The notes beneath the pieces were generated by a model. The model was not told the DNA's origin and searched no databases. It saw nothing but the letters and a program-made list of their open reading frames with translations. Shown here piece by piece: positions 44,162 to 64,000 of a stretch of DNA of 64,000 bases. A program made the position numbers and the translations under genes. Each line of letters opens with the position of its first letter. Positions within the stretch are counted from its first letter, which is position 1. Source of the DNA: Eubacteriales bacterium (GTDB lineage Bacteria > Bacillota > Clostridia > Oscillospirales > CAG-382); NCBI GenBank assembly GCA_045589515.1, contig JAZNPH010000045.1:5560-69559 (forward strand), in the 5' to 3' direction.

Positions 44162-44551
44162 TTAACCGAGAACCAGCAGAACGTCGCCGGAGTTAACGGT
44201 TGCGCCTTCGTTTACGTTTACGGAGTTTACAACGCCGTCACGGGGAGCCATAACCTCGTTCTCCATCTTCATAGCCTCGAAGATGCACAGAACGTCGCCC
44301 TTCTTAACAGCCTGGCCTGCCTTTACGGGAACCTTCACGATGGTACCGGGCATGGGGCAAGTGATGGATTCGCCTGCGCCTGCGGGAGCGGGTGCTGCTG
44401 CGGGAGCGGGTGCTGCTGCAGGTGCGGGTGCTGCTGCGGGAGCAGGAGCTGCTGCAGGTGCGGCTGCGGGAGCGTAGGTTGCGTTGGGATCAGCGTTTTC
44501 AACAACGACTTCGTACTTAACGCCGTTAACGGTTACAATGTATTTTTTCAT
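44162..44551 (-). CDS. biotin carboxyl carrier subunit of the decarboxylase
   Basis: MKKYIVTVNGVKYEVVVE, an Ala-Pro linker, then the biotinyl motif EAMKMENEV. Start moved to 44551 (MKKYIV) from the longest ORF. Confidence 0.88.
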   Translation of the reverse strand: MKKYIVTVNGVKYEVVVENADPNATYAPAAAPAAAPAPAAAPAPAAAPAPAAAPAPAGAGESITCPMPGTIVKVPVKAGQAVKKGDVLCIFEAMKMENEVMAPRDGVVNSVNVNEGATVNSGDVLLVLG

Positions 44552-44571
44552 TTTAATCAATCTCCTTAAAT

Positions 44572-46141: not shown

Positions 46142-48019
46142 TTACAGCGCTTTCTTTTTGCGCTTGGTGCAAAGGATCGCCATAGTCATACTGCTCAGAA
46201 GCAGGAGGACTGCGGAGAACAGGGTTTCGGCGGTGTCCCCTGTTGCAGGGATGGATTTGACGGTGATTCTGCCGCAGCCTGTCACGGAGCTGTAGTCGAT
46301 GAGCATAGCGGGGTATTTGGCAAGGAGGGGGGAATTTGCGGCCTTGATCACGCCGTTTTCAAAGGCGGAAACGTAGTTGGCCAGCACCATGTAGTCTTCC
46401 ATAACGTAGTCCAGGACGTTTTCCCCGCCGTTGAGCATGGCAAAGCCGCCGCCCAAATCCCGCAGAGTGTAGTTATAGCCTGCCAAACCGTAGGTGGCGT
46501 TCAGGTCGAGGGGTTGCCAGGTGTTCGTGGCCTTGTCATAGATCTTTACGTCACGGACGCGGTATTCCGCGGGGCCTTGCACCCAAACGTCCAGATCATC
46601 CGCTACGGTGGTATTGGGGATGGCTGTATTGACAGTGTAGGTCACGCCGGAGACGTGGAGGAAGCTTCCGTTTTCCGCTTCCCCTGCGAAGCGGGCGCCC
46701 CATTCCAGCATATCCAGAATTTGCTGTCCGTTGACACGCAACAGGCAGGCAACGTTGCCAAAGGGGTGGATGTCCTTGCAGGTCTTGTAGGTCAGGTCGC
46801 CTGTGAGGGCTTGATTGCGGACACCGCCGCCGTTCATCACGGCAATATCTACGTCCAGCCCCATATCGTCGAAGAGGTAATAGAGAGCGTCTGCGGCGAG
46901 GTCGCCGGAGTTGGTCTCCACCATGCGCACCAGGCGGTTGCCCTCGGCGTCGTAGTTATCAAAGGTGATCTCAGAGGAACCGATTTTCTGACCCAGTTGT
47001 TGGTCAATGGTTTGCATCCAGGTGTTTTTGATCTCCGCAACGGCGGTGTCGGAAAGGAGGGTGCTTTGGTAAAGCTCGGAGGTAAGGGTACCGCTTTCGG
47101 GGTCGTATTCGATGAAATCGGTGGTGATCTCCCCTGTTTCGGAGTCAATGATCATCATGCCGATACGGTTGAAGTATTCCCCTGTTTGGGTAAGGAGGAC
47201 GGAGTTGCCGTCCTTGTCGGTGACGGTCTGCCCTTTCATCACGGTGTGAGAATGGCCGTCGATGAAGGCGTCCAGACCGCTGACTGCGGCAATGGTGGCC
47301 TGGCTCGTCCAAGGCCCCGAGGAGGCGTCTACACCCAAGTGTCCCAGGGCAATGACTTTGGTTGCACCGGCGGCTTTGGCATCGTTGACAGCCGTTTGGA
47401 CGTCCCTGTGCAGGTCGGCTCCGTCGTCACCGCCTGCGATGCCGTAGATGAAGCTCCCGTTTTCGTCTTGAAAATACGCAGGAGAGGATTTGGAGAAGGT
47501 TTCGGGGGTGGTGATACCCACGAAGGCGACGGTCTCTTCCCCGCAGGGGAACAGGACGAAGCTTTCCAGAACGTTTTCTCTGCGGATGCCGTCTTTTTCA
47601 TGATAAAAATTGCATGAAAGATAAGGAAACTCCGCCAGCGAGATTGCGTTGAGACAGCCCTGCATTTTGTAGTCGAATTCGTGGTTGCCCAACGTGGCCA
47701 CGTCGTACGCGGCGGCGTTCATCAGTCGGAGGATGGTCTCCCCTTGATCCATGGCGCCGTAGGCCGTGCCCTGGATGTGATCCCCCGCATCCGCCAGCAG
47801 AACGTAGCGGTAGCGAGTCTGCAGATCCTGCTTTACAGCGGCGATGACGTCGTAGCTCAGTTCGCCGTCGATGTAGGTATGTATATCGTTGGTGTAGAGG
47901 ATCACCACGTCTTCGGAAAGCTGTGCTTCCTCGGCCTGCACAGCCGTAGGAAGGAGGGTGATGAGCAGGAATGCGCACAAGAAAACGCTCAATACTCTGA
48001 TCGTTGATGGTTGTTTCAT
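46142..48019 (-). CDS. secreted bifunctional metallophosphatase/5'-nucleotidase with a C-terminal sortase-type sorting signal
   Basis: Signal peptide ...TAVQA|EE, metallophosphatase motifs (YTNDIHTY, GDHIQG, GNHEFD), a 5'-nucleotidase C-domain. C-terminus IPATGD plus hydrophobic helix plus KRKKK. Confidence 0.88.
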   Translation of the reverse strand: MKQPSTIRVLSVFLCAFLLITLLPTAVQAEEAQLSEDVVILYTNDIHTYIDGELSYDVIAAVKQDLQTRYRYVLLADAGDHIQGTAYGAMDQGETILRLMNAAAYDVATLGNHEFDYKMQGCLNAISLAEFPYLSCNFYHEKDGIRRENVLESFVLFPCGEETVAFVGITTPETFSKSSPAYFQDENGSFIYGIAGGDDGADLHRDVQTAVNDAKAAGATKVIALGHLGVDASSGPWTSQATIAAVSGLDAFIDGHSHTVMKGQTVTDKDGNSVLLTQTGEYFNRIGMMIIDSETGEITTDFIEYDPESGTLTSELYQSTLLSDTAVAEIKNTWMQTIDQQLGQKIGSSEITFDNYDAEGNRLVRMVETNSGDLAADALYYLFDDMGLDVDIAVMNGGGVRNQALTGDLTYKTCKDIHPFGNVACLLRVNGQQILDMLEWGARFAGEAENGSFLHVSGVTYTVNTAIPNTTVADDLDVWVQGPAEYRVRDVKIYDKATNTWQPLDLNATYGLAGYNYTLRDLGGGFAMLNGGENVLDYVMEDYMVLANYVSAFENGVIKAANSPLLAKYPAMLIDYSSVTGCGRITVKSIPATGDTAETLFSAVLLLLSSMTMAILCTKRKKKAL

Positions 48020-48162: not shown

Positions 48163-51100
48163 TTATTGGATCAAGAAATAATACTCGGCCTCCGCCACGG
48201 TGATCAAGCCCTGCTCGGCGGTCAAAACCAAGCAATAGCTGTTCGCAGAGTTACCTGCAAGAGAAATCTCCAGCTCTACGGTGTGTGCAATGAAATCCTT
48301 CGTGTCGATCTTTCTGGTGACGGCGGTACTGCTGTAGGTGCCGTCCTCGCTCTTGACCATCAGAACCAGCTCCAGCTCATGAGTGGGAGGCAGGTCTGCC
48401 CAGGAGACGGTTACCACAGCGGTAGCACCCACCTCATACAGCTTTTTGTCGGCGGTGATCTTCAGAGAAACGTTTTCACTGCGCACCGCTTTCAGCTTGA
48501 GCTCGGCGGAACGGAGAAGCTCGCCGTTCATGGGAGAGCCTTCCGCACGGGAGTTGGAGGAGCGCCATTCCACAGTGAATTGGTATTCCGTCTCGGTCTC
48601 GGGGAGTAGCCCGGATACCAGAGTGACGGTGATGAAGCCGCCGCCCTGCAGCATGGGATACACAAATTCTCCGTTGCTGTTGGCGTAGATCTCGGTGGTG
48701 GCTTCCCCGTTCTTCACCAAAAGGTGAGCGTCCGCGGGAAGGGTGACTCCGGATTGCGGGATGAATACCAGAGCTTCATCGCGGTTTTTCCACTTGGAGG
48801 CAATTCCCGCAGAGGGAGTGTAGATATAGTCAAGCTCGCCGTAATTCCCAGTAGCCGACAAGGTGTAGGAGGGTGCATCCTTTAAGGAGGTAACTGCCTG
48901 TTCCTGAACGTTTGCCGCACCGGAAGCGTCAGCCTTGTCTGCCGTAAGGGCGGTGGTCAAGGTATCCCCTGCCACGGTGCTGTCCGCGCGGGAGAAGTCT
49001 ACCACAAACTGCAGATTCAACGAGCCGTTTCCGTATGAGAATTTGATCTCTTCCGTGCCGAGGCGGACAAAGGAGGTCAGCTCCAGCGACGAATAGCCGG
49101 AAGCATCTGCCCAATAGTAAATGCCGGTGTTGCGATCCAACATCAGAACCGTGGTTCCGGTAGGAAGGGCGGCACTGAACATCAGCTTTATCGCCTTGTA
49201 CTCGGTGCTGTCGTAGTTGTCCACGTCAAAATAGACGGTGAAAGCGGAATCGCGGCTGATGGTTGCGGTGTCCGTGGTCACGGTTCCGAAGACCTGGTCC
49301 TCGGTGACCTTGGAGGAGACGGTCATCAGCTTTTTGGCGTCGGAAATGGTGATGGTGATGGTACAATCGGCGGGAATGTTATTGATCACATAGACCCCAA
49401 CAGAACCGTTTGGTGTAAGCACCGCTTCGCGGTCGTCCAAACCCTCGGTTTCTGTTTGAATGGTTACCGCATGCCCTATGGGATAGAAATAGCCGCTCTG
49501 CAAGGTATATTGCAAAGTGATACCGTTTTCCAGATTCGTGCCGTTGGCTTTCTCAAGGGTATATTGGATCCCCTCTCCGCAAATGACCTCCACCTTCACG
49601 TTACCGGTAAAGAAATATACGCTGTCCGCCGCTATTTGGGGAGAGGCGTTGTAGTTTGCCCCCTCGCTGTAGCGGGCGTAGATATAGTAGTTGGTCAGAG
49701 CGACGTTCAGCTCAAATTTGGCGGCATAGCCACCTTCAAGATCGCTTCCCTTGATCCATTCGGTAGAATACTCGACGCCGTTCGCGTAATACACCACGCG
49801 GTACTCGGCGTAGGAATCGTAACCGTCAGTGCCCGTCAAAGGAGAATTGGGAACGGGATATACCGAAAGAATCGAGCCGTCTGCGTCAATATTTGCATCG
49901 AACTTGGGTTTTTCGGCAGGTGCAGACTGGTCGGCCTTGGCGATGGTATAGGTGACGGATGCGGTACAATCTCCCGCCGTTACGGAGGCGGTGTAGGTTC
50001 CCGCGTACTTGGGAATACCAACATCCGTATCCCCTTGCCGATAGGTAACGGGCAGGCTCCAGGAGGAAGAACAGTAAACGCGGACGGGATGCTCCGCCTT
50101 GTCGTATACGGTGTTTTCCGCCGTCAGGGTGATCTGCTCGCTGTATCCGCCGCACTCACAGTCTCTGCGGAGAGTTCCGCCGTTTGCGGAATAGGTATAG
50201 GTATGGGTTTCGGGGTTATGGTCGCATTTTTGCCAAACGGCGTACAGGGTCACTACCTCGCCTTTTTTGGTGGTCAGGTTGGTGACCGTATCTTGATCTC
50301 CGTACTCCACTCCGCCGTCGGGGGTAGTGGACCAGCCTTGGAACAGATAACCGGGACGCGCGAATTGATTGGCGTCCAATTGAGTGGGCATGTCGTAGGT
50401 AAAGTTGACGCTGGGCATATTGCCGGAGTAGGTCTCCCCTGCAGGCACGTTGGGATCGTAGATCACGGTGTAGCCGTTGGGTTCCCAAATGGCATACAGG
50501 ATCAAGTCGCCGATAGGCTCTCCGTCGAACGTGTAGACCGACGAGACGTTAAACCAACCGGTTGCCTCACCCGGGTGCATCCCATACTCGTAGTCATCCA
50601 AGGGATCGTCGCTTTTGCCGGAGGAGGTGTTCCAGCCCTTGATGGTATAGCCGGGGTGGCTGTAGATGTTACCGCTGATGGTTACCTTGGAACCGATTAC
50701 TATCTCCAAAGACTTATACTGTCCGGTGGTGACGTTGGTGATGGGGTCGGTGAAGTTCTCGTAATAGTGGAGCTTGTAATACGCTTTCGTAATACGGTGG
50801 TCCTCGAAGTAGTCCCCCTCTTTTTTGATGTCGACGGTGATGACGTCCGAAATACGGGGGTTGGTCATATCACCCCACAGATCCATCTGACCGCCGGTGA
50901 CGTAAATGGAGTTCTCTACGTGGGTGTTGCCGAAGTTGGAATCCTGCTTTTCTTCATCCTGATGCTGAGAGGTGGTCACGGTGACCTTACCGCCGTCCAC
51001 TCTCATGAAATCGCTTTGACCATTGTCGGCGTTGGCGCTACTGCCTTTTTCCTCCAAGCAGTAGAGGTTCAGCACCGTGGAGGTATTACCGGTGACGTAC

Positions 51101-53751
51101 ACACCGCCGCCGGAAGCCAAAGAGGAATTGTATTTGATCACGGGACAGGTAACTGCATCGGCGCGGCCGTGGGGAACGTCCGAAAGCTTATTGCCATCGT
51201 CATCCACGTGCCTCTTATTGACGCCTACCGTTACCTCGATCTTCTCGGTGCCGTCTTGTGCGCCCACAACGGCCAAAGCACCGCCGTTACCGGTGGCTTC
51301 GTTATCGCTGACAGAACCGCTGTAAACGTTAACCGTTACATTTTGATCGTTTGCGCTGACGTAGATGCCGCCGCCCATACCGTTTTGGGCAGTGTTGCCG
51401 TCCACGTTACCGCCGGTCATTTGGTAGTTACCGTTGTTGACAGCGATACCGCCGCCGCTGTTCTGCGCCGTGTTGGCAGAAATGCTGCCGTTGGTAACCT
51501 CGACGTCGCCGCCGTTGATATAGGCACCGCCGCCATTCTCGGATGCGGAGTTGCCTGTGATGCTACCGCCGTTGACGGTAAATTTGCCGCCGCCAAGGTA
51601 GACACCGCCGCCGTTTTGTGCAGCGGAATTGGCTTTGATCTCGCCGCCTTCAACGGTCATTTCGCCGCCGCCAAGGTAGACACCGCCGCCGTTTTGGGTG
51701 GAGGAGCAGCCTTTGATCACGGCTTCCCCGGAGATGGTACAAGTGCCTGCGGTCATGTAGATCGCGCCGCCGTTTTCAGCCGCACAATTTTGAATGGTAC
51801 CGCCGGAAATCTCTACGGTTCCTCGGGAATCGTTCATATACACGGCGCCGCCGTTTTGCTGGGCATAAATAAACTGAGAAGTATCGCCTGTATCCACGCT
51901 ATGGAGGGTACCGCCTGTCATTATAAAGCTACAAGGCTGGGTGCCACCTTCCGACATCAGGAACTGGCCGCTGATATCGCCGCCGGAAATATCTGCTTTT
52001 GCGTAGCCAAGGCTACCCTCGGTATTTAAAGTATCACCGCCGCCGATGGAACCGGTTTTGATGACACCGTCGGTAACGTATACTTCTGCCGCACCGCCGT
52101 TACCGCCGGTACCACCTTTGCCGCCACCGATGGAAGCGGCTGTTAAGGAGCCTCCGTTGATCTTCACGGTAGCATCGCCGCCGTTGCCTATCTCGTTTCC
52201 GGCACCGCCGCCGATGGAACCGCCGACAGTCATGGTGCCTCCCTTGACGGTAATGGTTGCGCTGCCTCCATTGCCGGATTGACTCAGGCCACCGCCGATG
52301 CCGCCGGAAAGCGTAACGTTTGCCGTTCCGGAAATCGTTACGTCCGCGCTACCGCCCACACCGCTGGCACTGTCGCCGCCGCCAATGGAGCTGGCGATCA
52401 CAGTTCCGCCGGAAATGTTGATGGTCGCTTTACCGCCTGTAGAAGTTGAGCTGTTGCCGCCGCCGATGCCGTTGCCGAAGGTACCGTAGGCTTCCACATA
52501 GCCACCCTTGATCGTGACGGTACCGGTGGCGCCGCCGGCATTAAAGGAGCTTCCGGAGCCGATGGCAACACCGCCTACCACCTTATCATATGGCTTGTCC
52601 GGGGAGGTAATATTTGAACCATTAACATAGATCTTGCCATGGTTTTTTGCGTACACTTTGCCGCCGGTAATGGTAATATTGGAAGTGCCACCGGCACTGA
52701 ACCAACCGATGCCGCCTCCAATAGCCGCCCCTGTTCCATTGCAATGGGCGATGACCTCACCACCGGAAATCGTCATGGTACAAGACCCGTTTCCGCCGGC
52801 ACCGATGGCGGTACAGTTCTCCGCATAGGTGGTCAAGACCTGCAATTTGCCACCTGCGATCTCTAAGTTGGTTACGTTTGATACGCTGTCGTTTCCGCCA
52901 ATACCGGAATTCCAATGGTTATAGCTGGCGTTAGAGTTAACAAACGCATCGATCTGATCCTCAGGCACCTTTACAGGAATATATAAAGAGCCTCCGTCGA
53001 TTGCACCGTCGCCATTAATATCCGTGATTTTCAAGGAAGAACCGGCTGCATTACCCTGCGTATAATAATGAATCGCTCGAACAATGTTTTCGCCCTTCAA
53101 ACGCAAGATTACCTTTTTTGCCAAGGACTGATTTCCCGGCTGCATATCAATCGTTCCCTGAGCGTAGCTTGCCACATAGGACGTATTCGGAACGTGACCG
53201 CTTTTTGACGGACTTCCTAAATGGATGCCGGAAAGAGTAACGTCAAAGGGATCGGCAACCGCTCCGGTAAATTGAATGGTATTGGTTGAATAAGAAGAGA
53301 CGTCACTTTGTGTGATGACGTAGATATTGGAAGCTGCATGAGTTCCGGTAACAGCTCCCCCATTACCGGAGTAAGTGGCACCCAGGGTAACGCTTCCCTT
53401 GGAAAGGTCGAAGACCACCAGCTTTCCGATGGGGCCGACGGGATCGCTTTCCGTGCCGTTGGCTTTGACGCGAATGTATTTTCCCTCGTCGACGGCGGTG
53501 ATGTCATAATAGAAGTCGTTGGCACCGCTAATGTCGGCAAAGGTCCCGTCTACAGTGTCTGCTCTCTGCCACTGATAAGAAGCAGAGGAAGCTTCGGTTT
53601 TAGCTACCAAACGGGAACCGTTGGGCAAAACGGTCACGGGAGAGGCCGCCCATACGAATACTACGAAGAAAGATAAAACAAAGACGCTTACAACAAAAAG
53701 CAGACCCACTGCATAAAGGAGATGAGCGTTTTTTACGTTGTTCTTTTTCAT
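48163..53751 (-). CDS. giant secreted surface protein (1862 aa): signal peptide, Gly-rich and parallel beta-helix (PMP-like) repeats, two Listeria-Bacteroides-type repeats, C-terminal region shared with the 1513-aa paralogue
   Basis: Signal ...VFVWA|AS. Repeats SIGGG..., NGGGVYLGGG.., NGGAIYM, NGGALAV. GYTIKGWNTS...LYAIWE and GYLFQGWSTTPDG...LYAVWQ are Flg_new/List_Bact-type repeats. No LPXTG, SLH or C-terminal TM. Confidence 0.8.
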   Translation of the reverse strand: MKKNNVKNAHLLYAVGLLFVVSVFVLSFFVVFVWAASPVTVLPNGSRLVAKTEASSASYQWQRADTVDGTFADISGANDFYYDITAVDEGKYIRVKANGTESDPVGPIGKLVVFDLSKGSVTLGATYSGNGGAVTGTHAASNIYVITQSDVSSYSTNTIQFTGAVADPFDVTLSGIHLGSPSKSGHVPNTSYVASYAQGTIDMQPGNQSLAKKVILRLKGENIVRAIHYYTQGNAAGSSLKITDINGDGAIDGGSLYIPVKVPEDQIDAFVNSNASYNHWNSGIGGNDSVSNVTNLEIAGGKLQVLTTYAENCTAIGAGGNGSCTMTISGGEVIAHCNGTGAAIGGGIGWFSAGGTSNITITGGKVYAKNHGKIYVNGSNITSPDKPYDKVVGGVAIGSGSSFNAGGATGTVTIKGGYVEAYGTFGNGIGGGNSSTSTGGKATINISGGTVIASSIGGGDSASGVGGSADVTISGTANVTLSGGIGGGLSQSGNGGSATITVKGGTMTVGGSIGGGAGNEIGNGGDATVKINGGSLTAASIGGGKGGTGGNGGAAEVYVTDGVIKTGSIGGGDTLNTEGSLGYAKADISGGDISGQFLMSEGGTQPCSFIMTGGTLHSVDTGDTSQFIYAQQNGGAVYMNDSRGTVEISGGTIQNCAAENGGAIYMTAGTCTISGEAVIKGCSSTQNGGGVYLGGGEMTVEGGEIKANSAAQNGGGVYLGGGKFTVNGGSITGNSASENGGGAYINGGDVEVTNGSISANTAQNSGGGIAVNNGNYQMTGGNVDGNTAQNGMGGGIYVSANDQNVTVNVYSGSVSDNEATGNGGALAVVGAQDGTEKIEVTVGVNKRHVDDDGNKLSDVPHGRADAVTCPVIKYNSSLASGGGVYVTGNTSTVLNLYCLEEKGSSANADNGQSDFMRVDGGKVTVTTSQHQDEEKQDSNFGNTHVENSIYVTGGQMDLWGDMTNPRISDVITVDIKKEGDYFEDHRITKAYYKLHYYENFTDPITNVTTGQYKSLEIVIGSKVTISGNIYSHPGYTIKGWNTSSGKSDDPLDDYEYGMHPGEATGWFNVSSVYTFDGEPIGDLILYAIWEPNGYTVIYDPNVPAGETYSGNMPSVNFTYDMPTQLDANQFARPGYLFQGWSTTPDGGVEYGDQDTVTNLTTKKGEVVTLYAVWQKCDHNPETHTYTYSANGGTLRRDCECGGYSEQITLTAENTVYDKAEHPVRVYCSSSWSLPVTYRQGDTDVGIPKYAGTYTASVTAGDCTASVTYTIAKADQSAPAEKPKFDANIDADGSILSVYPVPNSPLTGTDGYDSYAEYRVVYYANGVEYSTEWIKGSDLEGGYAAKFELNVALTNYYIYARYSEGANYNASPQIAADSVYFFTGNVKVEVICGEGIQYTLEKANGTNLENGITLQYTLQSGYFYPIGHAVTIQTETEGLDDREAVLTPNGSVGVYVINNIPADCTITITISDAKKLMTVSSKVTEDQVFGTVTTDTATISRDSAFTVYFDVDNYDSTEYKAIKLMFSAALPTGTTVLMLDRNTGIYYWADASGYSSLELTSFVRLGTEEIKFSYGNGSLNLQFVVDFSRADSTVAGDTLTTALTADKADASGAANVQEQAVTSLKDAPSYTLSATGNYGELDYIYTPSAGIASKWKNRDEALVFIPQSGVTLPADAHLLVKNGEATTEIYANSNGEFVYPMLQGGGFITVTLVSGLLPETETEYQFTVEWRSSNSRAEGSPMNGELLRSAELKLKAVRSENVSLKITADKKLYEVGATAVVTVSWADLPPTHELELVLMVKSEDGTYSSTAVTRKIDTKDFIAHTVELEISLAGNSANSYCLVLTAEQGLITVAEAEYYFLIQ
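51586..51696 (-). repeat. 78-nt in-frame tandem repeat inside the beta-helix region (33-nt core identical)
   Basis: gccgccgccaaggtagacaccgccgccgttttg occurs at 51586-51618 and again at 51664-51696. It encodes NGGGVYLGGG(E/K)(M/F)TV(E/N)GG(E/S)I... 26-aa units. Confidence 0.8.
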
Positions 53752-53766
53752 AGTGCGTCTCTCCTT

Positions 53767-54588: not shown

Positions 54589-54605
54589 CGGCAAGTCTCC
54601 TTTCG

Positions 54606-55097
54606 TCAATCTACCTGATGGGCTTCAATGAGAATCTCCACCAGATCTACCATGCCCATATATTCCAAAGCGCCTTCGGGATCCCAAAAGGCAGTAATGG
54701 TTACGGTGGACTCGGTGTTGGGCTCAATGTAGCAGGTAACCACACACTTCTTTTGAACCGGTTCGGAGCCGTTCACGGAGAACGCATACGGAATATTGCC
54801 GGTTTTGTTTTGGATGGTCACCTTGTAGCCCACGGCGACCTCGCTGTTGTTGGTAACGAGGATCTCTCTTTCAACCGTCCCGGGGACCGCATCAATGGTG
54901 AATTCCGATTGGAATGACGTGGCATTCTCGGAAATGTCAAATTTAGCAACCCGAGCAGAATCCTGCCCCGAGGAGGTGGTTGTGTAGCGGGCGTAAAGTC
55001 CCGAGAGCATGGAGGTGGAAAAGGCCGTCATACACAAAAGAATGAGAGCGAGGCGGATCATGAAATGCCCGATATAAATTCTGTTTTTACCGTTCAT
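54606..55097 (-). CDS. small (163 aa) TasA/camelysin-like candidate fibre subunit with SipW-cognate-like signal
   Basis: MNGKNRIYIGHFMIRLALILLCMTAFSTSMLSGLYARYTTTSSGQDSARVAKFDI... is near-identical in its N-terminus to 60533..61039. Ends ...LIEAHQVD. Confidence 0.6.
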   Translation of the reverse strand: MNGKNRIYIGHFMIRLALILLCMTAFSTSMLSGLYARYTTTSSGQDSARVAKFDISENATSFQSEFTIDAVPGTVEREILVTNNSEVAVGYKVTIQNKTGNIPYAFSVNGSEPVQKKCVVTCYIEPNTESTVTITAFWDPEGALEYMGMVDLVEILIEAHQVD

Positions 55098-55197
55098 TCG
55101 GAAACTACCCCTTTCTCTGATAATGCCTATTTATAGACCTATAGGGACGCGATGGAAAAGATACGCCACGCGTCCCTATGGTAAGCTTTCATTTCGG

Positions 55198-58100
55198 TTA
55201 CTCCAAGACAATCAAGCTGATGGGAACCTGAATCGTCTCGTTGTCGTTGTACGCTTTCAACAGCAAACGATAGGTTCCGGGAGATGTTTCGCCGCTGAGC
55301 TTCACCACCACGGTACCGTCTGCCAATAAACCGCATTTAAACACGCCGTAGTCGCCCTGTGTTACATCGTTCACCGCTTCGATGACGTTGGTTTGCGTCA
55401 CGTAGGCGGCGCCGATCTTCCTTTGGCATTCCACGGTAATAGTGTCGGCATTTTGGGTTTTAAGTTTCACGGTCAGTGCTGTGGTAAGCTCCTCGGTGTG
55501 GAGCAAACGATCGCTGACGAAATCCACCCGCAATGATGGTTTCGTTTTGTCGGAGACAGCAAGATTCACGGGAGCTGCAACGGCATTCCCCATCATCGGG
55601 GCAGAGCCGTCTGCGGTTGCGGACGCCCAAAGCTCTATTTTCAACGTAGCAGACTTTACCGTTGGCGAATGGAAGGAAAGCGTTACAGTTCCATCCCCCT
55701 CCTGGACAGACGGCAAAGGAATCAAGAAGGTTCCTGCACCGGACATGTAATAGCGGGAATCTCCCACTTTTACATAGGAATTCACAGGAAGTGCCGACGA
55801 AGATCCCGAGCTGATCACCAAAGAGAAATTTCTGTTGGTGTAGCGGGAATCAGAAACGGAGCACTCCGTTTTGTAATCCAGTGTGATCTCTTCCTCCACG
55901 GAAACGGATACCTGAGAGGTGGAGAGGGAAAACTCCCTCTTTTTCACCGTTTGGAAGGTTAGAGAAGCAGGCGCGGTATCGTCCGTGCCGGATTTGATAG
56001 TCCTTTGCAGGGAAACGGTGTTGGTTCGGCAGGTCTCCCCCGCTTCCGGGAAGGAGACGAGGAATAGCAACCGCTCCGTTGTCACCGCTGTGCTTTGGGA
56101 CTCTGTAAAGAACCCGTTTTCGCCCATGACCTTGAAGGATTTCAAAGGAATCTCGGTGGACGTCCCGTCTGCCGTATAATGATAATACTTCAGAGACGCA
56201 GAATCCGTCCAGTCGATCATGGTGATGGTGGTGCCTTCTGCCAAAGGCTTTCCGTTTTCAAAAACAAGCTTGAGATCCTGATAGTTGGCAGGAATATAGT
56301 CCTTTGTGACAAACTGTGCCGTAAAGGCAGAATCGGCGCTGACCACCGCACTTGTTTTCCCTTCGAAGGGAACGAAGACTTTACCTGCAACAATGGCAGA
56401 GCTGGTTGCTTCAGCCGCGGCAAGCTCGCGGCGGATGGTGATGAACACCGGTACGATAACGCCGTTATCCCCTACCAGCGTCAGTGCAACAGTACGTTCC
56501 GTTACGATATCGCTGAGAGCGTTTGCGTTTTCGATGGTGAAGATAAATTCGGGAGCTGTGTTCCTCGGCAAGGATCCGACCAAGGTATCGTCCTTTTTGA
56601 TGGGAACGGGGGGGCTTCCCACTTCGTCGGTGGCGCTGTTTTTCACCGAAACCTTGATACGGAAGTTTTCGTTTGCTTCCGCACTGGAGGCGGAGCTGAA
56701 GTCATACGTGCCGTCCATCAGGTTCACGTTGAAGGGTGTAATATGCTTGATGGAATAAGACTGAGCCAATATAAACTGTGGGAGAACGAAGGATGCGGTT
56801 TTGGAACCGTCCAGAGGCTCGCCCTTGGCCGCAGTCAAGGTGATCGATTTGGGAACTTCCGGAGTATATTGGAGCGTAATGGTACAGCCATCGGTAGATT
56901 GGATACCTGCAGTACTGTTGGAGCCAATGGTATAATGATAATAGCCACGGCTGTGCCAACGGATCTTCATACCTGCGAGCTGGGGATACTCCGTATCCTC
57001 CCCTGTGTATTTCAGGGGCACGGAAATAACACTGACCGACCCGTTGTTGATGATATCTCCATCTGCTATCACCTTAATGGCAGTAACCTCTTCCCAGGTT
57101 TTTCCGGAAGGAAGCGTTTCCACCCAATTTTGGGCACTATAAGCTTGATCGTAATTTTTCACTTCGTCAAAGCAATATCGAAGCTTTAATGGGGTCCCCT
57201 GCTGATTGTGCAGCGTTGGAGCGGAGCTGACCGCCAAAGTGATGTCGCACTGCTCCACAAAGTTGGAGTTGAGATCAAAGCCCTTCTTGGCGATGGGGAT
57301 GATGTAGTAGAAATCTTTTGCAGTACCGCCTTCGATGCACTTCACCTGCAACTGATAGGTAACGATATCCGCAAAGTTCTCCATGGGAACGTTGCTTCCG
57401 CTTTCTCCCTTGGAATTGATCAGGCTGTCAGTAATATCCAGCTCTGCGGGACGGGCAAAAAAGGTGACGGAGCCTGCAGAAGCGAAGCACCCCACATTAT
57501 CGCCGGTTCTCCCGTCACCGGTCAAGTCATACGTATCTTTTACAGCATTCTTTGAATACGAACCTCCGGCACCATTGCTCCTTTTATATCCGGCAACAAA
57601 CACACATTCGCGCAAATTAATCGTTCGGGTCGACATCGTGCTGTCGCTATTCAATTGAAGCGAAAACGATAATGTATTGCCGTGGGGCAATGCCCCTAAA
57701 GTCTCGTTATAATATCCAATCTTTTCGCCTCGTTTAAACTCGATGATGTAAAAAACATCCGTTGCACTAACCGGTTTAGGGGTTACATTAGCAACCTCAA
57801 GCGTTCCGCCCACATATTTGGCGGTAATGGAAGCAGTATTCACCGTAACGCCTTTGGGCAAAAGAAGACCGAGTCGAATATCGTTGAGACACGCATTACT
57901 GGTATAAGGGTATCGAATGACAAACACTCTGCCGCTAATTGTGACAGAACCGCCTGCATTTACGGAATTCGAAGATAGCGCAGCAGCTTCCAAGCCGTAT
58001 GATACACCGGTACCGTTGTCAAAAACCGAACTGCAGGTTGCATTGAAAACTTTATTCTTCTCCTCGCCGTCAACGGTGTATAACGTAATTCTATGCACCG

Positions 58101-59739
58101 GCTTTATAGCAGGCATCTCGGAAATGTTCACATATCCCCAAATCGTGCCGGCGGAATATGCGGCAGAAGAGGCACCGGCGTGGTATGCTTTACTGTTTCC
58201 CGGCAGATTCCCCATAGAATAGGAAAGCATTTTGAAATAATATGCACGATGATCCGCCGGAAGATTATTGCGGGAAAAAACCAGATAATGAGCTTCTGTT
58301 ATGGTTTTGCCCGGAGAGTAGTGCGGATTCTTGACAGAAGTCGTGAAAGAGCGCCCCTCAAAGGCAGGATTTCCGTCCCGATCCACCAAAGTATACTCAA
58401 TGGAAATCATCTCCGTATCTCTGTCACACATCAAGTTGACGGTGGTAACAGATACATGGTTTGTTTCATTGGTATCAAAAGAAAGTTCTATCCAAAGAGG
58501 CCCGCTACCGTTCAATGCGGAATCGTTGCGCATGGCAAGCGTTCCCATTAACTGAACTGCCTCCAAATCCAAAACATTTGCTTTCCCGTTCACGGTGTGA
58601 GCCTTTAAAACCGCCTCGGTATTGGTATCAAGGCGAATTGCAAAAGTATGATCCTTTAACGTTCTTCCGTCAATACTTACGGAAACCTTACCGTAGAATG
58701 TATAGTTGCCGGGAACGGATTTTAGTGCTTCCGGCGCTGAAAACAGAATTTCAAACAATTTTGAACTTTTGAAATACATCTGCTCTGCTCTGATTTGAAC
58801 AACACCCGTCTCCTCGTCATAAGATTCCGTAAACACAGGTGTCCCATTCGCCGTCGACAAAGAAACATTGCTGTACTTCAATCTATGGGTCGTACCGCTC
58901 ACGGTACACACAGGAAGACTGATACTGACCTTTAAATCTTTAATCAGATTATCACAACCTAAATTGTTCGATGAAAAATAAGAAAAAATAGTTTTAAGAG
59001 TCCCTTCGGCACCCATAATATCCGTGGCAACGGAGGAACCGCCAACCAAATAGGACGAAGTCGTCGTCTCATACGAAAGCTGACCGGAAACGGTGATCTG
59101 TTTCAAAGAAACCGAAGGTCCAACCGGTTCAAAAACACCTTCCCCATTTTCCTGCATCAACGTGAATTTCAAAAGCGGGGTTTCCCCATCGCCCAGGCCA
59201 CTGCCATTCTGCTTATCCCATAGGCCAGGGGTAAATCGGAACGGCAAGCTCATGGTAAGCGCATTTAAGCCCTCATTCAAGGTATAGGTCAATTGAGCAT
59301 AACTGTACTTATGCGGCGTATATTCTCCATCGGTATTGACCGTAAAAGGATCATTTCTCTGTGCCGTGATGGTAGCGTCCCCAGAAGAAGGATCGTCGGT
59401 TAGATTCACATACAGCACAGGGTCCATTTCAATTACGAAACGGTACTGCTTGTCCGTGGACATACCATCTATCTGAAGCCACAAATAACGGTCCGTGGAG
59501 GTGTAGTTTGCGTTGTCATACTCCCAGTCGGTCAATTTGGAGCCTTCCTGTGTGAGAGGGGTATCCAAGCTGGCTCGGTCGGCGTCGAAATACAGTCCCG
59601 CAGAGAAGCTGACATCACCTGCGGTATAAACCGCTTCTTCGGCGGCGGCAACCGTCGGGAGCGGGGGCATCAGGGGACAAAGGACGCAAAAGGTCAAAAG
59701 CCCTGCCAACAAACGCAATCCGATTCTTCTGTTGTTCAT
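55198..59739 (-). CDS. giant secreted surface protein (1513 aa), no recognised catalytic or anchor motif; C-terminal ~380 aa homologous to the 1862-aa protein
   Basis: Signal peptide ...LPTVAAA|EEA and a long beta-rich sequence. C-terminal VSADSAFTAQFVTKDYIPANYQDLKLVF...GTTITMID matches ISRDSAFTVYFDVDNYDSTEYKAIKLMF...GTTVLMLD of the other giant. Confidence 0.75.
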   Translation of the reverse strand: MNNRRIGLRLLAGLLTFCVLCPLMPPLPTVAAAEEAVYTAGDVSFSAGLYFDADRASLDTPLTQEGSKLTDWEYDNANYTSTDRYLWLQIDGMSTDKQYRFVIEMDPVLYVNLTDDPSSGDATITAQRNDPFTVNTDGEYTPHKYSYAQLTYTLNEGLNALTMSLPFRFTPGLWDKQNGSGLGDGETPLLKFTLMQENGEGVFEPVGPSVSLKQITVSGQLSYETTTSSYLVGGSSVATDIMGAEGTLKTIFSYFSSNNLGCDNLIKDLKVSISLPVCTVSGTTHRLKYSNVSLSTANGTPVFTESYDEETGVVQIRAEQMYFKSSKLFEILFSAPEALKSVPGNYTFYGKVSVSIDGRTLKDHTFAIRLDTNTEAVLKAHTVNGKANVLDLEAVQLMGTLAMRNDSALNGSGPLWIELSFDTNETNHVSVTTVNLMCDRDTEMISIEYTLVDRDGNPAFEGRSFTTSVKNPHYSPGKTITEAHYLVFSRNNLPADHRAYYFKMLSYSMGNLPGNSKAYHAGASSAAYSAGTIWGYVNISEMPAIKPVHRITLYTVDGEEKNKVFNATCSSVFDNGTGVSYGLEAAALSSNSVNAGGSVTISGRVFVIRYPYTSNACLNDIRLGLLLPKGVTVNTASITAKYVGGTLEVANVTPKPVSATDVFYIIEFKRGEKIGYYNETLGALPHGNTLSFSLQLNSDSTMSTRTINLRECVFVAGYKRSNGAGGSYSKNAVKDTYDLTGDGRTGDNVGCFASAGSVTFFARPAELDITDSLINSKGESGSNVPMENFADIVTYQLQVKCIEGGTAKDFYYIIPIAKKGFDLNSNFVEQCDITLAVSSAPTLHNQQGTPLKLRYCFDEVKNYDQAYSAQNWVETLPSGKTWEEVTAIKVIADGDIINNGSVSVISVPLKYTGEDTEYPQLAGMKIRWHSRGYYHYTIGSNSTAGIQSTDGCTITLQYTPEVPKSITLTAAKGEPLDGSKTASFVLPQFILAQSYSIKHITPFNVNLMDGTYDFSSASSAEANENFRIKVSVKNSATDEVGSPPVPIKKDDTLVGSLPRNTAPEFIFTIENANALSDIVTERTVALTLVGDNGVIVPVFITIRRELAAAEATSSAIVAGKVFVPFEGKTSAVVSADSAFTAQFVTKDYIPANYQDLKLVFENGKPLAEGTTITMIDWTDSASLKYYHYTADGTSTEIPLKSFKVMGENGFFTESQSTAVTTERLLFLVSFPEAGETCRTNTVSLQRTIKSGTDDTAPASLTFQTVKKREFSLSTSQVSVSVEEEITLDYKTECSVSDSRYTNRNFSLVISSGSSSALPVNSYVKVGDSRYYMSGAGTFLIPLPSVQEGDGTVTLSFHSPTVKSATLKIELWASATADGSAPMMGNAVAAPVNLAVSDKTKPSLRVDFVSDRLLHTEELTTALTVKLKTQNADTITVECQRKIGAAYVTQTNVIEAVNDVTQGDYGVFKCGLLADGTVVVKLSGETSPGTYRLLLKAYNDNETIQVPISLIVLE

Positions 59740-59774
59740 TGCTTTCTCCCCCCTTCGATGTCGTTGAAAATTTC

Positions 59775-60521
59775 TTACGGAACTGCTTTTGTCACAGTGA
59801 TCTGGCTGCTGTAATCCTTGGCGGGATCATTTTTATAAAAAGTAAACGTATACTGAGAATTTGCTTTGACGGTCACTTGGCAGGACATTCCGCTTGCGAA
59901 AGCCAGCAAAGGATCCGTATTATCGGGGACGACGCCATCAAGCCAGGAAATGATAACGTCCCCATGATAATCCGTCGTGGTAACGACAACATGCAGAAAA
60001 GGACTACCTATATTGTCATTTACCTGAACAGCCAGGTCAACGTTTTCCGCCACAACGGTGAAGCGCCCCTGCAATCTGGTTACGTAGGGAGACGTAGACG
60101 TGACGGTAACGGTGTAAACACCCGGTTCAAGGCCGTCAAAGGTAACGATCTCTTCGTCTCGAACACCCGCAGACAACGCAATGGTTTGCTTTTTCTCCCC
60201 GAAAGAAGAGGTCAGCACCACCTCGCATTGAACGGCAGTCTCGGAAACCCGTAATTCGTCGGGATAGTTCATCAACCGAAAGGAGATCTCCTTGACACCC
60301 GCTTGCAGAGTATACAAGGGAATCGGTTCGGTTTCAACCGCCAAAAGATCGCTTTCCAAGTAGAAGCTTTTGGCAATATAGGGCGTATCGGAGGTTTCCG
60401 CCGAAACGTATTTTGCCAACGTATACACACCCGCAGACACCGCAACGGCAAGCACGAGAAACGCCGTCACGGACAGGAGAATCATTCTGTTGTGGCGGGG
60501 AACTTGCTTGCGATTGTTCAC
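59775..60521 (-). CDS. medium (248 aa) secreted protein with SipW-cognate-like N-terminus; paralogue of 53767..54588
   Basis: ...MILLSVTAFLVLAVAVSAGVYTLAKYVSAETSDTPYIAKSFYLESDLL... and ...GVVPDNTDPLL.... Confidence 0.6.
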   Translation of the reverse strand: MNNRKQVPRHNRMILLSVTAFLVLAVAVSAGVYTLAKYVSAETSDTPYIAKSFYLESDLLAVETEPIPLYTLQAGVKEISFRLMNYPDELRVSETAVQCEVVLTSSFGEKKQTIALSAGVRDEEIVTFDGLEPGVYTVTVTSTSPYVTRLQGRFTVVAENVDLAVQVNDNIGSPFLHVVVTTTDYHGDVIISWLDGVVPDNTDPLLAFASGMSCQVTVKANSQYTFTFYKNDPAKDYSSQITVTKAVP

Positions 60522-60532
60522 CGGATTACCTC

Positions 60533-61039
60533 TTAATCGATCTGTTCTGTTTCTATAATCACCTGCAAAGCGTCCATTTCAAACGCTTGGGTAGCAGGCT
60601 GGGGAGATTCCCAAAGGATCTGTACCTCGTAGGTAACGGATTGAGATTCCCCTGCGTGGAAAACGCCTTGGATCTTGTCGATCTTCGTTTGCTCTCCCCC
60701 ATCCACCTTAAAGTACGTAAAGGCGAGGGGAAGGTTTTTCGTCAGATTGATCACCTTGACGCGGTATGTCTGGGCAACCTCGCAGACGGAACCGCCCTCC
60801 GTGTTTGTTATGGTAAAGCGGATGCGGTTTTCTTCACCCGGGGCGGCATACAGATCGGACAGGGTATAGGTCGCATCCCCGGCCATCAGCGCCACACGGG
60901 CGGAATCCTGCCCCGAGGATTTGGTGAGATAACGAGCATAGAGTCCCGACAGCATGGCAGTGGTGAAGGCGGTTGCGCACAAAAGAATCAATGCGAGACG
61001 CATGGTGAACTGTCCGCTAAGTATCCGTTTTTTGTCCAC
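60533..61039 (-). CDS. small (169 aa) TasA/camelysin-like candidate fibre subunit with SipW-cognate-like signal
   Basis: Start set at GTG 61039 (AAGGAGGG 6 nt upstream), because alignment with the 163-aa paralogue begins at DKKRILSGQFTMRLALILLCATAFTTAMLSGLYARYLTKSSGQDSARVA. Ends ...IIETEQID. Confidence 0.6.
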   Translation of the reverse strand: MDKKRILSGQFTMRLALILLCATAFTTAMLSGLYARYLTKSSGQDSARVALMAGDATYTLSDLYAAPGEENRIRFTITNTEGGSVCEVAQTYRVKVINLTKNLPLAFTYFKVDGGEQTKIDKIQGVFHAGESQSVTYEVQILWESPQPATQAFEMDALQVIIETEQID

Positions 61040-61055: not shown

Positions 61056-61643
61056 TTAGTCTTCGGTCTTCTCTTGCGTGTCTTCGGGTTGGTTCTGCAT
61101 AGATTGCAGGCGGCGGATCTCTTCCTTGATCTGCTCCAATTCATCCATGGATTCCTGTTTTTCCTTGCGGAAGGAACGTTCCATCAGGAAGAAAGCGGCG
61201 CCGAGGATGAGAATGATGCCCAAGGGAGAACGGATGAAGGTGAGGATCAGCCCCACATAGGGCAGAGAGGCCACCACTTCCCCTTTGATGTCGGAAAGCT
61301 TGATGGCGGGATCCGCAGTTTGATTGGCATCCCCTTGGGTGACGACGGATTCACCGTCGATGGAAATGATGCGGTGGACGATGAGTGTTCCGTAGCTTTG
61401 GTACACCACCACGTCCCCCACCTCGTAGGAATCCCGCGCGATGACGATGATCATATCGTTGACTTGAAGCTCCGGTTCCATGCTGCCGGAAAGCACCACG
61501 GAGGTTGCGAAGCCCAAGGGCATGGGCATTTTGTTGCCGCCGAGGCTGCGGGCGTTCCAGGAATACAATTGGATTCCCAGAAAAGCACCTGCCAGGGCGA
61601 TGATCACAATGCGCAGGATCAGGCGTTTTGTGTTGGTCTTCAT
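61056..61643 (-). CDS. sipW: archaeal/ER-type signal peptidase I (SipW-like, S26B)
   Basis: VLSGSMEPELQVNDMII...GDVVVY...LIVHRII...TQGDANQTADP is the Ser/His S26B pattern as in B. subtilis SipW. A C-terminal TM helix is followed by a charged tail. ATG at 61643 forms an ATGA overlap with the upstream stop. Confidence 0.88.
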   Translation of the reverse strand: MKTNTKRLILRIVIIALAGAFLGIQLYSWNARSLGGNKMPMPLGFATSVVLSGSMEPELQVNDMIIVIARDSYEVGDVVVYQSYGTLIVHRIISIDGESVVTQGDANQTADPAIKLSDIKGEVVASLPYVGLILTFIRSPLGIILILGAAFFLMERSFRKEKQESMDELEQIKEEIRRLQSMQNQPEDTQEKTED

Positions 61644-62560
61644 AAGGTATCGTATGCAGAGTGTCTGTTTTTTGCTTGGTAAACCACGTAAAGCCCTGCA
61701 AGGGCCGCCAAAGCGATCAACAACCACCAGAAGGTAGAGTTATCGTCCCCGGTGACAGGCAGGTCGCCGCTGCTGTTATCGGAATCGGCACTTTGCTTGG
61801 CGTTGGTTTCGATGATCACGGTGAGGGTGACCTCCTGGTTTTCCACTGCAAGGTTGCCCAGGTATGTGTCGTACTCGTCGTCCCCTTCAAAAGCCCATTC
61901 CCAATCCATGGTGTAGGTATGCTGTCTGCCTGCGCCGATGGTGCTTTCGCACACCATGCCGTCCAGATCCAGAATATCCTCAAAGGAATCTTCGGAGCCT
62001 ACGGCATAGCTTCCGTCGGCAGTGCGGAGGCGCACCTTGATGGGAACGTCGTGATCGCTGAAGTTGACGAAGGCGGAAAGGTCCAGAGAGTAATCCAAAG
62101 CGAAATCGCCGGAATTTTCCAGAGTGAAGGTATATGCGTTGGAGGTGCCGGGGGCGATGACCTTATCGGTGCCGCCGTCCACGGTGATCTTGCCCTCCCC
62201 GTTTTCATAGGAGACCTTGAACAGCTCCACGTTGGTAATGCCGTTCCAGATGGTATTTTCGTCCGCGGGAGTGGAAGACGTATCCAGAGGACGGAAGGTG
62301 TTCAACGCATAGGGAGAAGCGGGGATCTTCAGCTCCGCTTCGGGGAAGGTGATGCGGCCGTCTTCATCCATTCTGCCCACACGCACGGTGGTACGTGCGT
62401 GGGAGCGGGTAAGGGAAAACACGTTGCGGGAGGGCTCGCCGGAAAAGGGAGTGAGGCGGCTACCCAGCATCACCAGAGCGCAGGCTTCGAAAAGGAGCAG
62501 CAAAGCGATGAGAACGCTGAACACGCTGTTATTCTTTTTGAGGCTTTTGTACTCGTTCAT
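61640..62560 (-). CDS. TasA-like-domain surface protein with LPXTG cell-wall sorting signal
   Basis: N-terminal TM/signal. Body motifs SNAYTFTLENSGDFALDYSL and HTYTMDWEWAFEGDDEYDTYLGNLAVENQEVTLTVIIET parallel the 235-aa protein (FDISWKWLFEGDN...DTVLGDAA...LKIDITVTQ). C-terminus LPVTGD plus hydrophobic helix plus KNRH. Confidence 0.7.
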   Translation of the reverse strand: MNEYKSLKKNNSVFSVLIALLLLFEACALVMLGSRLTPFSGEPSRNVFSLTRSHARTTVRVGRMDEDGRITFPEAELKIPASPYALNTFRPLDTSSTPADENTIWNGITNVELFKVSYENGEGKITVDGGTDKVIAPGTSNAYTFTLENSGDFALDYSLDLSAFVNFSDHDVPIKVRLRTADGSYAVGSEDSFEDILDLDGMVCESTIGAGRQHTYTMDWEWAFEGDDEYDTYLGNLAVENQEVTLTVIIETNAKQSADSDNSSGDLPVTGDDNSTFWWLLIALAALAGLYVVYQAKNRHSAYDTL

Positions 62561-62644: not shown

Positions 62645-62693
62645 GAAAAAAGAGGGGAATACGCCCCTCCGACCCGGCCACGTCGGGTCGGAG
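62645..62693 (-). terminator. intrinsic terminator/attenuator directly after the 235-aa subunit gene
   Basis: Minus strand: ctccgacccg-acgtgg-ccgggtcggag, then gagggg-cgtatt-cccctc followed by ttttttc. Confidence 0.7.
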
Positions 62694-62722
62694 AGACGAA
62701 AAGTGCTTTTTTGTGTGTTTGA

Positions 62723-63733: not shown

Positions 63734-64000
63734 TCACTCTGCCTTATTCTCTTCGGGGGCAGATTCTTTCGAAGGAGCTTCCGCAGGTTCTTCCGCAGGC
63801 GCTTCCGAGGGAGCGGTATTGGCGTTCTGCTGAGCCTGACGGGCGCGGAGGGTTTCCAGCTCTGCCAAGAGGGCCTTGGTGTCCGCTTGCTTTTCCTTAT
63901 CGAACTTGCGGCGGCGGAGCATCTCATAGGCGACAAAGATGCCCACGGGAAGGACGATGCACACCAGCAGACCGGGAGTGGTCTGGAGGAACATGGCCAC
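63734..64000 (-). CDS. 3' end of a second SipW-like signal peptidase gene (5' part outside the window)
   Basis: FLQTTPGLLVCIVLPVGIFVAYEMLRRRKFDKEKQ...LLAELETLRARQ aligns with the C-terminal TM helix and charged tail of the SipW at 61056..61643 (FIRSPLGIILILGAAFFLMERSFRKEKQ...EEIRRLQS). The catalytic part is not visible. Confidence 0.55.
   Translation of the reverse strand: MAMFLQTTPGLLVCIVLPVGIFVAYEMLRRRKFDKEKQADTKALLAELETLRARQAQQNANTAPSEAPAEEPAEAPSKESAPEENKAE

Follow-up and report, generated by a model that had tools for sequence, protein, structure and literature searches.

The stretch of DNA analysed here, referred to below as the window, is 64,000 nucleotides long and comes from a member of the Eubacteriales (contig JAZNPH010000045.1 of assembly GCA_045589515.1, positions 5,560 to 69,559). 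It contains a cassette of genes for a putative surface fibre. Two genes for SipW-type signal peptidases, sipW-a and sipW-b, flank the gene for a 235-amino-acid (aa) major fibre subunit and the gene for a 306-aa protein, here called the anchor; genes for minor subunits and giant secreted proteins follow (Table 1). A dedicated signal peptidase I gene and minor- or tip-subunit genes in the neighbourhood are a trait of the TasA superfamily. An original prediction, made from the sequence alone, had described the 306-aa protein as a TasA-like paralogue of the 235-aa protein and as a possible covalently wall-linked base subunit of the fibre.

The N-terminus of the anchor is MNEYKSLKK, the same start being found in all of the relatives compared. 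The stop/start overlap with sipW that had been described (ATGA, 61640-61643) is present, the TGA of the anchor gene occupying 61642-61640 and the ATG of sipW-b 61643-61641; no Shine-Dalgarno sequence of its own is visible in front of sipW-b. The N-terminus is basic and is followed by a hydrophobic segment of approximately 21 residues with no clear cleavage site after it, and the signal region reads SRL..F/Y in place of the GT(F/Y)A.(Y/F) of the other subunits. The C-terminal end of the protein reads ...SSGDLPVTGDDNSTFWWLLIALAALAGLYVVYQAKNRHSAYDTL, which resolves into LPVTG-DDNST, then FWWLLIALAALAGLYVVYQ, then A-KNRH. The LPXTG sorting signal assigned to this protein in the original prediction is borne out by the NCBIfam model TIGR01167 (LPXTG_anchor), which scores 20.9 bits against a cut-off of 15.9. 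The hydrophobic segment and positively charged tail are present after the LPVTG, and Arg or Lys at alignment positions 297-300 is conserved family-wide. From the basic N-terminus with its hydrophobic segment, and from the C-terminal hydrophobic stretch with KNRH, the LPVTG is predicted to lie outside the cell. None of the Pfam families was matched by the 306-aa protein.

Twenty-six relatives of the anchor were recovered by a word-indexed search, and a profile search of 1.84 billion cluster representatives revealed 4333 at E≤1e-3 and 486 clusters at E≤1e-30. Nearly all of the best 150 are approximately 300 aa in length and cover most or all of the profile; an xPxTG motif with a hydrophobic stretch is found in 109 of them, and most of the others have xxTGD. 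In an alignment of 145 representatives that are at most 50 % identical to each other, the motif is preceded by GG and its columns hold Pro in 119 sequences, Thr in 140, Gly in 135 and Asp in 125, so that P-x-T-G-D is as well conserved as the core residues of the fold. The Pfam model Gram_pos_anchor (PF00746) was matched in 38 of 100 members of the family. As judged from this alignment, the sorting signal is a character of the anchor family and not a chance occurrence, because it has been retained among representatives sharing no more than half of their residues.

Some members of the family end differently. The anchors of two related loci (L004 and L045) lack the motif and have a hydrophobic stretch followed by a long charged tail. 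Those of eight others (L031, L035, L036, L038, L039, L040, L041 and L044) also have no sorting motif; in these, the hydrophobic stretch leads through a Pro/Glu-rich linker into a ribosomal-protein-like (uL15-like) cytoplasmic domain at the inner end of the anchor (for example L039:2305-3654). The Pfam model Ribosomal_L27A/uL15 (PF00828; cut-off 21.5) gave 34-45 bits for L036, L039 and L041, and the remaining five have the same C-terminal sequence as these three. The motif-less paralogues occupy the same place in the cassette as the PxTG anchors. Because members without the motif have other C-terminal anchors, the sequences suggest that holding the body at the surface is the constant of this family and that a sortase signal is the commonest means to that end.

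Comparison of the anchor with the 235-aa major subunit by BLASTP aligned a single stretch, W.W.FEGD...YDT.LG, which is identical in the two proteins (E 2e-4). A family-versus-family comparison with hhalign extended the match to anchor residues 112-256 and major residues 56-233, with a probability of 98.6 % and an E-value of 6.4e-16; the two sequences present in both alignments had been removed, their inclusion giving an inflated 99.9 %. A hidden Markov model (HMM) built from anchor sequences only matched the 235-aa protein of the window with an E-value of 1.3e-13, and the reverse comparison gave 4.4e-7. Since hhalign and both directions of the HMM comparison are significant, the profiles identify the anchor as a genuine paralogue of the major subunit. 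The match found by hhalign is confined to the body, where the anchor keeps those residues that are most conserved in the major subunit (APGT, W.W.FE and D.YDT.LG). The body motifs proposed earlier as shared by the two proteins are thus partly literal: W.W.FEGD...YDT.LG stands and the homology of the whole body is solid, but "FTLENSG" has only a positional equivalent in the 235-aa protein, ITLAGTPE.

The major subunit belongs to a large family of its own, more than 7054 of the 8000 candidates scored being relatives at E≤1e-3. Neither Pfam nor NCBIfam provided a match when the window protein and 26 members of this family were scanned. In the AlphaFold2 monomer model of the major subunit, residues 26-42, which come right after the signal helix, have a predicted local distance difference test score (pLDDT) below 50. 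Within the family an invariant Lys, K45, is accompanied by the almost invariant E104 and N173, possible counterparts of the N-E-K triad that forms the isopeptide "lock" of BsaA.

One of the characteristics of the anchor gene is its near-constant position. Five homologue-carrying contigs and 43 species of a genome collection supplied 46 non-redundant loci with an anchor gene, and the open reading frames of these related loci were classed using HMMs for SipW, the major subunit and the anchor. A sipW gene lies directly 3′ of the anchor gene in 45 of the 46, a major-like gene precedes it in 41, and a second sipW is located further upstream in at least 36, the others being cut by contig ends. The usual gene order, which the window fits, is sipW-a, major, anchor, sipW-b, minor subunits and giant protein. 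The loci belong to uncultured Oscillospiraceae, Ruminococcaceae, Lachnospiraceae, Acutalibacteraceae and Christensenella of the gut and rumen, together with one metagenome-assembled genome (MAG) labelled Eggerthellaceae (L045). The cassette, or parts of one, was thus seen in MAGs labelled as other than Clostridia, a second case being a "Tenericutes" MAG (L048); horizontal transfer or a binning error could account for this.

The sipW-b product scored 75.2 bits with TIGR02228 (cut-off 51.85), and 65.9 with NF046067, the equivalog model for Bacillus SipW, which is below the cut-off of 190. By these scores it is SipW-like and is not a SipW orthologue. The sipW-a fragment matches the C-terminus of a full-length orthologue (L001:8259-9026), which gave 100.5 bits with TIGR02228. 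Best hits stay within each group (36 of 36 for "a" and 44 of 44 for "b"), and identity is 47-55 % inside a group and 29 % between the two; on sequence, sipW-a and sipW-b are therefore separate orthologous groups that diverged anciently, and nearly all cassettes retain the two. The two peptidases may differ in their substrates, because the SRL..F/Y signal of the anchor is unlike the GT(F/Y)A(K/R)Y of the other subunits.

Sortase genes accompany the cassette in some of its relatives. In an Oscillospiraceae MAG (L023), a class B sortase (L023:6669-7436; TIGR03064, 185 bits) lies directly upstream of sipW-a in the same orientation and is the first gene of the cassette. A homologue sharing 75 % identity is found at the matching position in L022 (L022:7233-7991), as detected by tblastn only. 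The anchors of these two loci both end in KPPNTGDD, which resembles the motif of clostridial SrtB enzymes, (S/P)PxTG. In two other loci, class C sortases are located 7-9 kb from the cassette. Outside the loci with a sortase nearby, the enzyme would have to be encoded at a distance.

With respect to the joining of subunits, the anchor lacks the canonical N-terminal module ...GTFA-KY...ARVAKW, which we term the plug, and keeps the body of the major subunit, which we term the socket. In place of the plug it has SRL..F/Y, a short conserved strand and a variable linker of 40-50 residues. The minor subunits show the reverse pattern, the plug being retained and the body diverged. From this pattern we infer that the socket of the anchor takes up the N-terminal strand of the last, that is the most recently secreted, major subunit. 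Strand donation in this direction, like the physical attachment of the anchor to the polymer, is a prediction.

We therefore consider, with a probability of roughly 0.6, that the 306-aa protein is the sortase-anchored, cell-proximal (basal) subunit of a heteropolymeric, SipW-dependent surface fibre. The sortase-linked base subunit suggested in the original prediction is thereby supported as the best hypothesis; it draws on the paralogy, the conserved motif, the predicted topology, the adjacency of sipW in 45 of 46 loci, the class B sortase of relatives, and the other C-terminal anchors of the family. On export, the body of the anchor would come to lie on the outer side of the membrane. LPVTG would be cut between Thr and Gly, and the Thr joined to peptidoglycan, by a sortase, possibly of class B, whose gene would lie elsewhere in the genome. 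The β-sandwich body would enter the fibre by β-strand complementation, as in TasA, BsaA and AbpX fibres; uptake of a strand by the anchor would end growth at the base, and the sortase would then fix the whole fibre to the wall. The distal part of the fibre would carry the minor subunits and a giant adhesin. Low, matched levels of the anchor and its peptidase would be ensured by the hairpin that follows the major-subunit gene and by the overlap of the anchor stop codon with the sipW-b start. By analogy, an order in which the base is added to end growth agrees with the base-growth model drawn for BsaA. A broader picture, which we offer tentatively and hold to be somewhat less probable than its negation, is that of a hybrid pilus widespread in gut Clostridia, with a donor-strand shaft, a terminal paralogue sortase-linked to peptidoglycan, two anciently diverged SipW enzymes, of which one would process the canonical GT(F/Y)A(K/R)Y subunits and the other, coupled in translation to the anchor, the divergent SRL..F/Y signal of the latter, and, in some lineages, anchors wired to a uL15-like domain.

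Several observations weigh against a basal, sortase-linked role for the anchor. The absence of a sortase gene from the 64-kb window, which had been remarked on before, is upheld by a scan for the TLxTC motif and by tblastn with four sortases from related loci, both of which were empty, and a sortase is found near the cassette in only four of the 43 species (flanks of up to 10 kb, many of them shorter). Three relatives sharing 46-50 % identity with the anchor (L002, L010 and L012) carry TP(V/E)LGDD instead of PxTGDD; these have Leu at the Thr site of sortase cleavage while keeping the hydrophobic stretch and the basic tail, which suggests that the Thr is dispensable in some lineages. The long N-terminal segment may remain in the membrane, in which case linkage to the wall would be partly redundant. 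Residues 47-49 and 57-64 are modelled as strands in the AlphaFold2 monomer (block-mean pLDDT of approximately 64-84); if these pack on the body, the anchor may be self-complemented or may itself be a strand donor. In addition, the members of the anchor family all come from metagenome assemblies.

The relation to TasA is a further point on this side of the balance. PF12389 (Peptidase_M73, TasA/camelysin) did not match the anchor or the major subunit of the window, nor any of 26 members of the major family or 100 of the anchor family, and the SipW-signal model was likewise unmatched in the Pfam/NCBIfam scans of the window proteins and these same members. Comparison by hhalign with 111 genuine TasA/CalY sequences gave a probability of only 5-13 %, and with a single TasA (identical to PDB 8aur over residues 28-261) E-values of 0.045-0.064. 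Membership in the TasA/camelysin Pfam family by sequence is rejected on these two results. What did align was "APGT..Y.F.L.N.G..LDY" with the TasA strand "KPGD...F.F.N.GSLAIKE", and the signal end GTFAKY with GTWAAF; these alignments hint at a relationship but do not reach significance. Among PDB sequences, searches with the profiles returned only sub-threshold AbpX matches and hydrophobic-tail artefacts, the anchor profile matching AbpX chains with E-values of 0.23-0.28.

At the level of structure, the top-probability Foldseek match of the anchor model (pLDDT 71) is TasA, 5of2 (probability 0.99, E 3.4e-3, template modelling (TM) score 0.41). The major subunit model (pLDDT 74.5) has as its first match the TasA fibre 8aur_A (E 9.3e-3) and as its second the Tafi pilus 9p0a_C. 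No Foldseek match falls below an E-value of 1e-3, and TM-scores are 0.3-0.4; full-length models were submitted, and their transmembrane helices and disordered linkers probably lower the scores. The Foldseek matches, the sipW genes and the GT(F/W)A signal end are the reasons for which we place this fibre system, with moderate confidence, in the wider TasA superfamily and not in TasA proper. "TasA-like", as the protein was labelled in the original prediction, is apt for gene context, for signal-peptide motif and, tentatively, for fold, but it does not extend to PF12389 or to the sequence profiles.

The polarity of the fibre could also be the opposite of that proposed above. The anchor might be a TapA-like nucleator which, still attached to the wall, starts the fibre by donating its own N-terminal strand into the first major subunit, the donor being V-I-x-L at residues 47-50 or SDARTTVRVG at residues 53-62 on a long flexible leash. 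We regard this as unlikely, although it is the case in B. subtilis that TapA, a protein of the cell surface, gives its N-terminus to TasA by strand complementation (PMC9674648), and that the tapA gene lies right before sipW, its stop overlapping the sipW start (PMC10151520). I48 and L50 are conserved in 115-117 of the 145 representatives, the N-terminal strands are confidently modelled in the monomer, the variable linker of 40-50 residues would suit a leash, and the SDARTTVRVG of the close clade of the anchor resembles the SDTARVAKWG of the major subunit. Yet the TTVRVG segment is not conserved in the wider anchor family, the donor module GT(F/Y)A(K/R)Y...ARVA, which is common to the major subunit and the four minor ones, is absent from the anchor, and a nucleator would have no need of the whole body of the major subunit, TapA itself having a complete and unrelated immunoglobulin (Ig) fold. 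The retention of the PVLGDD/PELGDD, motif-less and uL15-type anchors (three, two and eight loci, respectively) in the same syntenic position would fit a membrane-tethered assembly platform, in which the anchor stays in the membrane by its C-terminal and perhaps its N-terminal segment, acts with SipW-b, and has its PxTG processed only occasionally or not at all. In C. perfringens strain 13, BsaA oligomers are attached to the membrane and not to the wall (PMC11580942), and archaeal Tafi loci have membrane anchors (10.64898/2026.01.04.697558). We nevertheless hold such a platform to be improbable, as a P-x-T-G-D conserved to the same degree as the core residues is hard to explain unless a transpeptidase reads it, and as a class B sortase heads the L023 cassette with a homologue at the same place in L022.

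The compactness of the anchor monomer model, with its N-terminal segments as strands, would also suit an independent wall-anchored surface protein, for instance an adhesin, descended from a fibre subunit and displayed as a monomer. The near-invariant position of the gene between the major gene and sipW-b and the retention of the most conserved residues of the major body make this very improbable. The idea that LPVTG arose by chance in a membrane protein has only the shortness of the motif in its favour; we consider the likelihood negligible, given the TIGR01167 score, the correct placement of the hydrophobic stretch and basic tail, and the conservation of the motif across the sets of 150 and 145 representatives, on which the chance explanation was rejected.

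The system described here can be compared with the tapA-sipW-tasA operon of B. subtilis. Both have a dedicated SipW-type peptidase, a GT(W/F)A-type signal end on the fibre subunit, and an accessory gene directly before sipW with overlapping stop and start; the jelly-roll fold of TasA is the best, though a weak, structural match here, and the N-terminal donor-strand joining of TasA subunits is predicted by analogy for the present fibre. They differ in that TapA is not a TasA paralogue and is attached non-covalently, whereas here the accessory protein and the fibre subunit are paralogues and the former bears a sorting signal for sortase. The present cassette further encodes a second SipW paralogue, several minor subunits and giant proteins. 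The homology of the anchor is to the major subunit, and its resemblance to TapA is positional and functional only.

A parallel for the sorting signal is found in C. perfringens, most strains of which have one bsaB-like paralogue with LPXTG and a class B sortase gene, srtB, beside sipW; Kivimaki et al. speculate that the LPXTG BsaB-like protein ties BsaA oligomers to peptidoglycan (PMC11580942). TasA-superfamily subunits and SipW are common to both systems, and the srtB at the head of the L023 cassette, with its homologue in L022, is a further likeness. The bsa operon has one sipW and the von Willebrand factor A (vWA) protein BsaC, unlike this cassette, where the window has no sortase beside it; the comparison with BsaB is made by description. 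Bacterial AbpX loci carry LPXTG or SLH anchors, an example being A0A1M6GRE1 of Clostridium amylolyticum, and AlphaFold3 predicts that the LPXTG anchor and fibril subunit of such loci form donor-strand-complemented oligomers (10.64898/2026.01.04.697558). Alongside the anchor, these clusters encode tip proteins, minor subunits and a signal peptidase I. In contrast, the AbpX-associated peptidase has ten transmembrane helices, the enzymes here being short and SipW-like (190-250 aa), and no significant sequence match to AbpX was found.

The proposed mechanism also has parallels in basal pilins and in PapH. Basal pilins such as SpaB of Corynebacterium diphtheriae are minor LPXTG subunits that end growth and pass the polymer to the wall via sortase. 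The shaft of such sortase-assembled pili is polymerised through isopeptide bonds by a pilin-specific sortase; here, the shaft would presumably be strand-complemented, with a sortase acting on the base only. PapH, a specialised rod-subunit paralogue of the chaperone-usher pili, stops donor-strand polymerisation and stays at the cell-proximal end. It belongs to a Gram-negative system which depends on a chaperone and an usher and has no covalent anchoring, and its plug and socket may have the reverse polarity.

The attachment of SipW-dependent, TasA-type fibres to Gram-positive cells is understood only in part. TapA is confined to certain Bacillus species, and for C. perfringens and the AbpX loci an LPXTG anchor is a proposal. 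LPXTG anchors in TasA-superfamily loci have thus already been predicted in two preprints (PMC11580942; 10.64898/2026.01.04.697558), and what is new here is a large, unannotated family of anchors of this kind. The cassette offers a clean genetic layout for the idea, with a major subunit, a paralogous anchor bearing the signal, and a peptidase gene coupled to that of the anchor. Uncultured Clostridia of the gut and rumen have it in abundance, and neither the major nor the anchor family is covered as a family by Pfam or NCBIfam. If our reading is true, present annotation overlooks an adhesive organelle that is common among gut commensals, and a single fibre can unite anchoring by sortase with polymerisation by donor strands.

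Table 1. Features of the putative fibre cassette and the adjoining gene in the 64,000-nucleotide window (positions in the window unless given as residues)
Feature	Position	Strand	Remarks
Anchor subunit gene, 306 aa	61640..62560	(-)	Ribosome-binding site AAGGAGG 5′ of start
Hydrophobic segment of anchor	residues ~13-33		After basic N-terminus
Short conserved strands of anchor	residues 47-49, 57-64
Variable linker of anchor	residues 65-100
β-Sandwich body of anchor	residues 103-256
LPVTG codons, anchor residues 267-271	61748..61762	(-)	NCBIfam TIGR01167 and family-wide GG-x-P-x-T-G-D
19-residue hydrophobic stretch, anchor residues 277-295	61676-61732	(-)	Between LPVTG-DD and KNRH
sipW-b, 195 aa, archaeal/endoplasmic reticulum-type signal peptidase I	61056..61643	(-)	TIGR02228
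Major fibre subunit gene, 235 aa	62723..63430	(-)	Signal ends ...ISGTFA-KYVT, then DTARVAKFGV
15-bp GC-rich RNA hairpin and U-rich run	62662..62698	(-)	Between major and anchor genes
sipW-a, 3′ end, archaeal-type signal peptidase I, 88-aa fragment	63734..64000	(-)	Gene runs off window
Minor subunit 1a, 168 aa, GTG start	60533..61039	(-)	Motif SGLYARYLT..SGQDSARVA
Minor subunit 2a, 248 aa, AKYVS-type signal	59775..60521	(-)	Weak N-terminal match to major HMM
Giant secreted protein a, 1513 aa, ordinary signal peptide	55198..59739	(-)	Candidate tip/adhesin
Minor subunit 1b, 163 aa	54606..55097	(-)	Paralogue of 1a, 41.5 % identity
Minor subunit 2b, 280 aa	53767..54609	(-)	Paralogue of 2a, 29.6 % identity
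Giant secreted protein b, 1862 aa, ordinary signal peptide	48163..53751	(-)	Listeria-Bacteroides repeat
5′-Nucleotidase with IPATGD, hydrophobic stretch and KRKKK	46142..48019	(-)	Second sorting signal in window

The hairpin between the major and anchor genes has a minimum free energy of -32.4 kcal/mol (z -4.1), none of 200 shuffled sequences being as stable, and a scan revealed a terminator-like site at 62670-62651. The hairpin probably acts as a leaky terminator or as an element that stabilises the transcript. It may thereby set the production of much more shaft subunit than accessory proteins, for which this is the usual arrangement.

Downstream of sipW-b, the minor subunits and giant proteins form two tandem paralogous modules (48163-61039, minus strand) encoding proteins of 168, 248 and 1513 aa and of 163, 280 and 1862 aa, respectively. 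The minor subunits match the major profile at N-terminal positions 6-60 only. Minor subunit 1a aligns with the major family over residues 12-51 only (hhalign, 96.5 %) and is matched by the major HMM at positions 6-46 only; what it and its paralogue 1b share with the major subunit is the signal and the N-terminal module SG(L/T)(Y/F)A(R/K)Y...SG.DSARVA. Minor subunits 2a and 2b have a weaker version of the same module. The C-terminal portion of giant protein b, approximately 360 aa, is 27 % identical to giant protein a, the position of which is orthologous to that of proteins of 1604-2166 aa in L001, L002, L004 and L005. Those four loci have one giant protein each in the stretch examined. The two modules of the window may provide alternative fibre tips.

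The second sorting signal that had been claimed for the window is indeed found, as the IPATGD of the 5′-nucleotidase. As far as its sequence indicates, this enzyme is not part of the fibre and is a second substrate of the same kind of sortase. Its motif is likewise of the P-x-T-G-D type, which, together with the class B sortase of L023 and the homologue in L022, lends indirect support to a sortase being encoded in this genome. Its gene is adjoined by that of an IS200-type Y1 transposase (45424-45894, minus strand), beyond which lie the genes for the alpha, beta and gamma subunits of oxaloacetate decarboxylase (41484-45138, minus strand).

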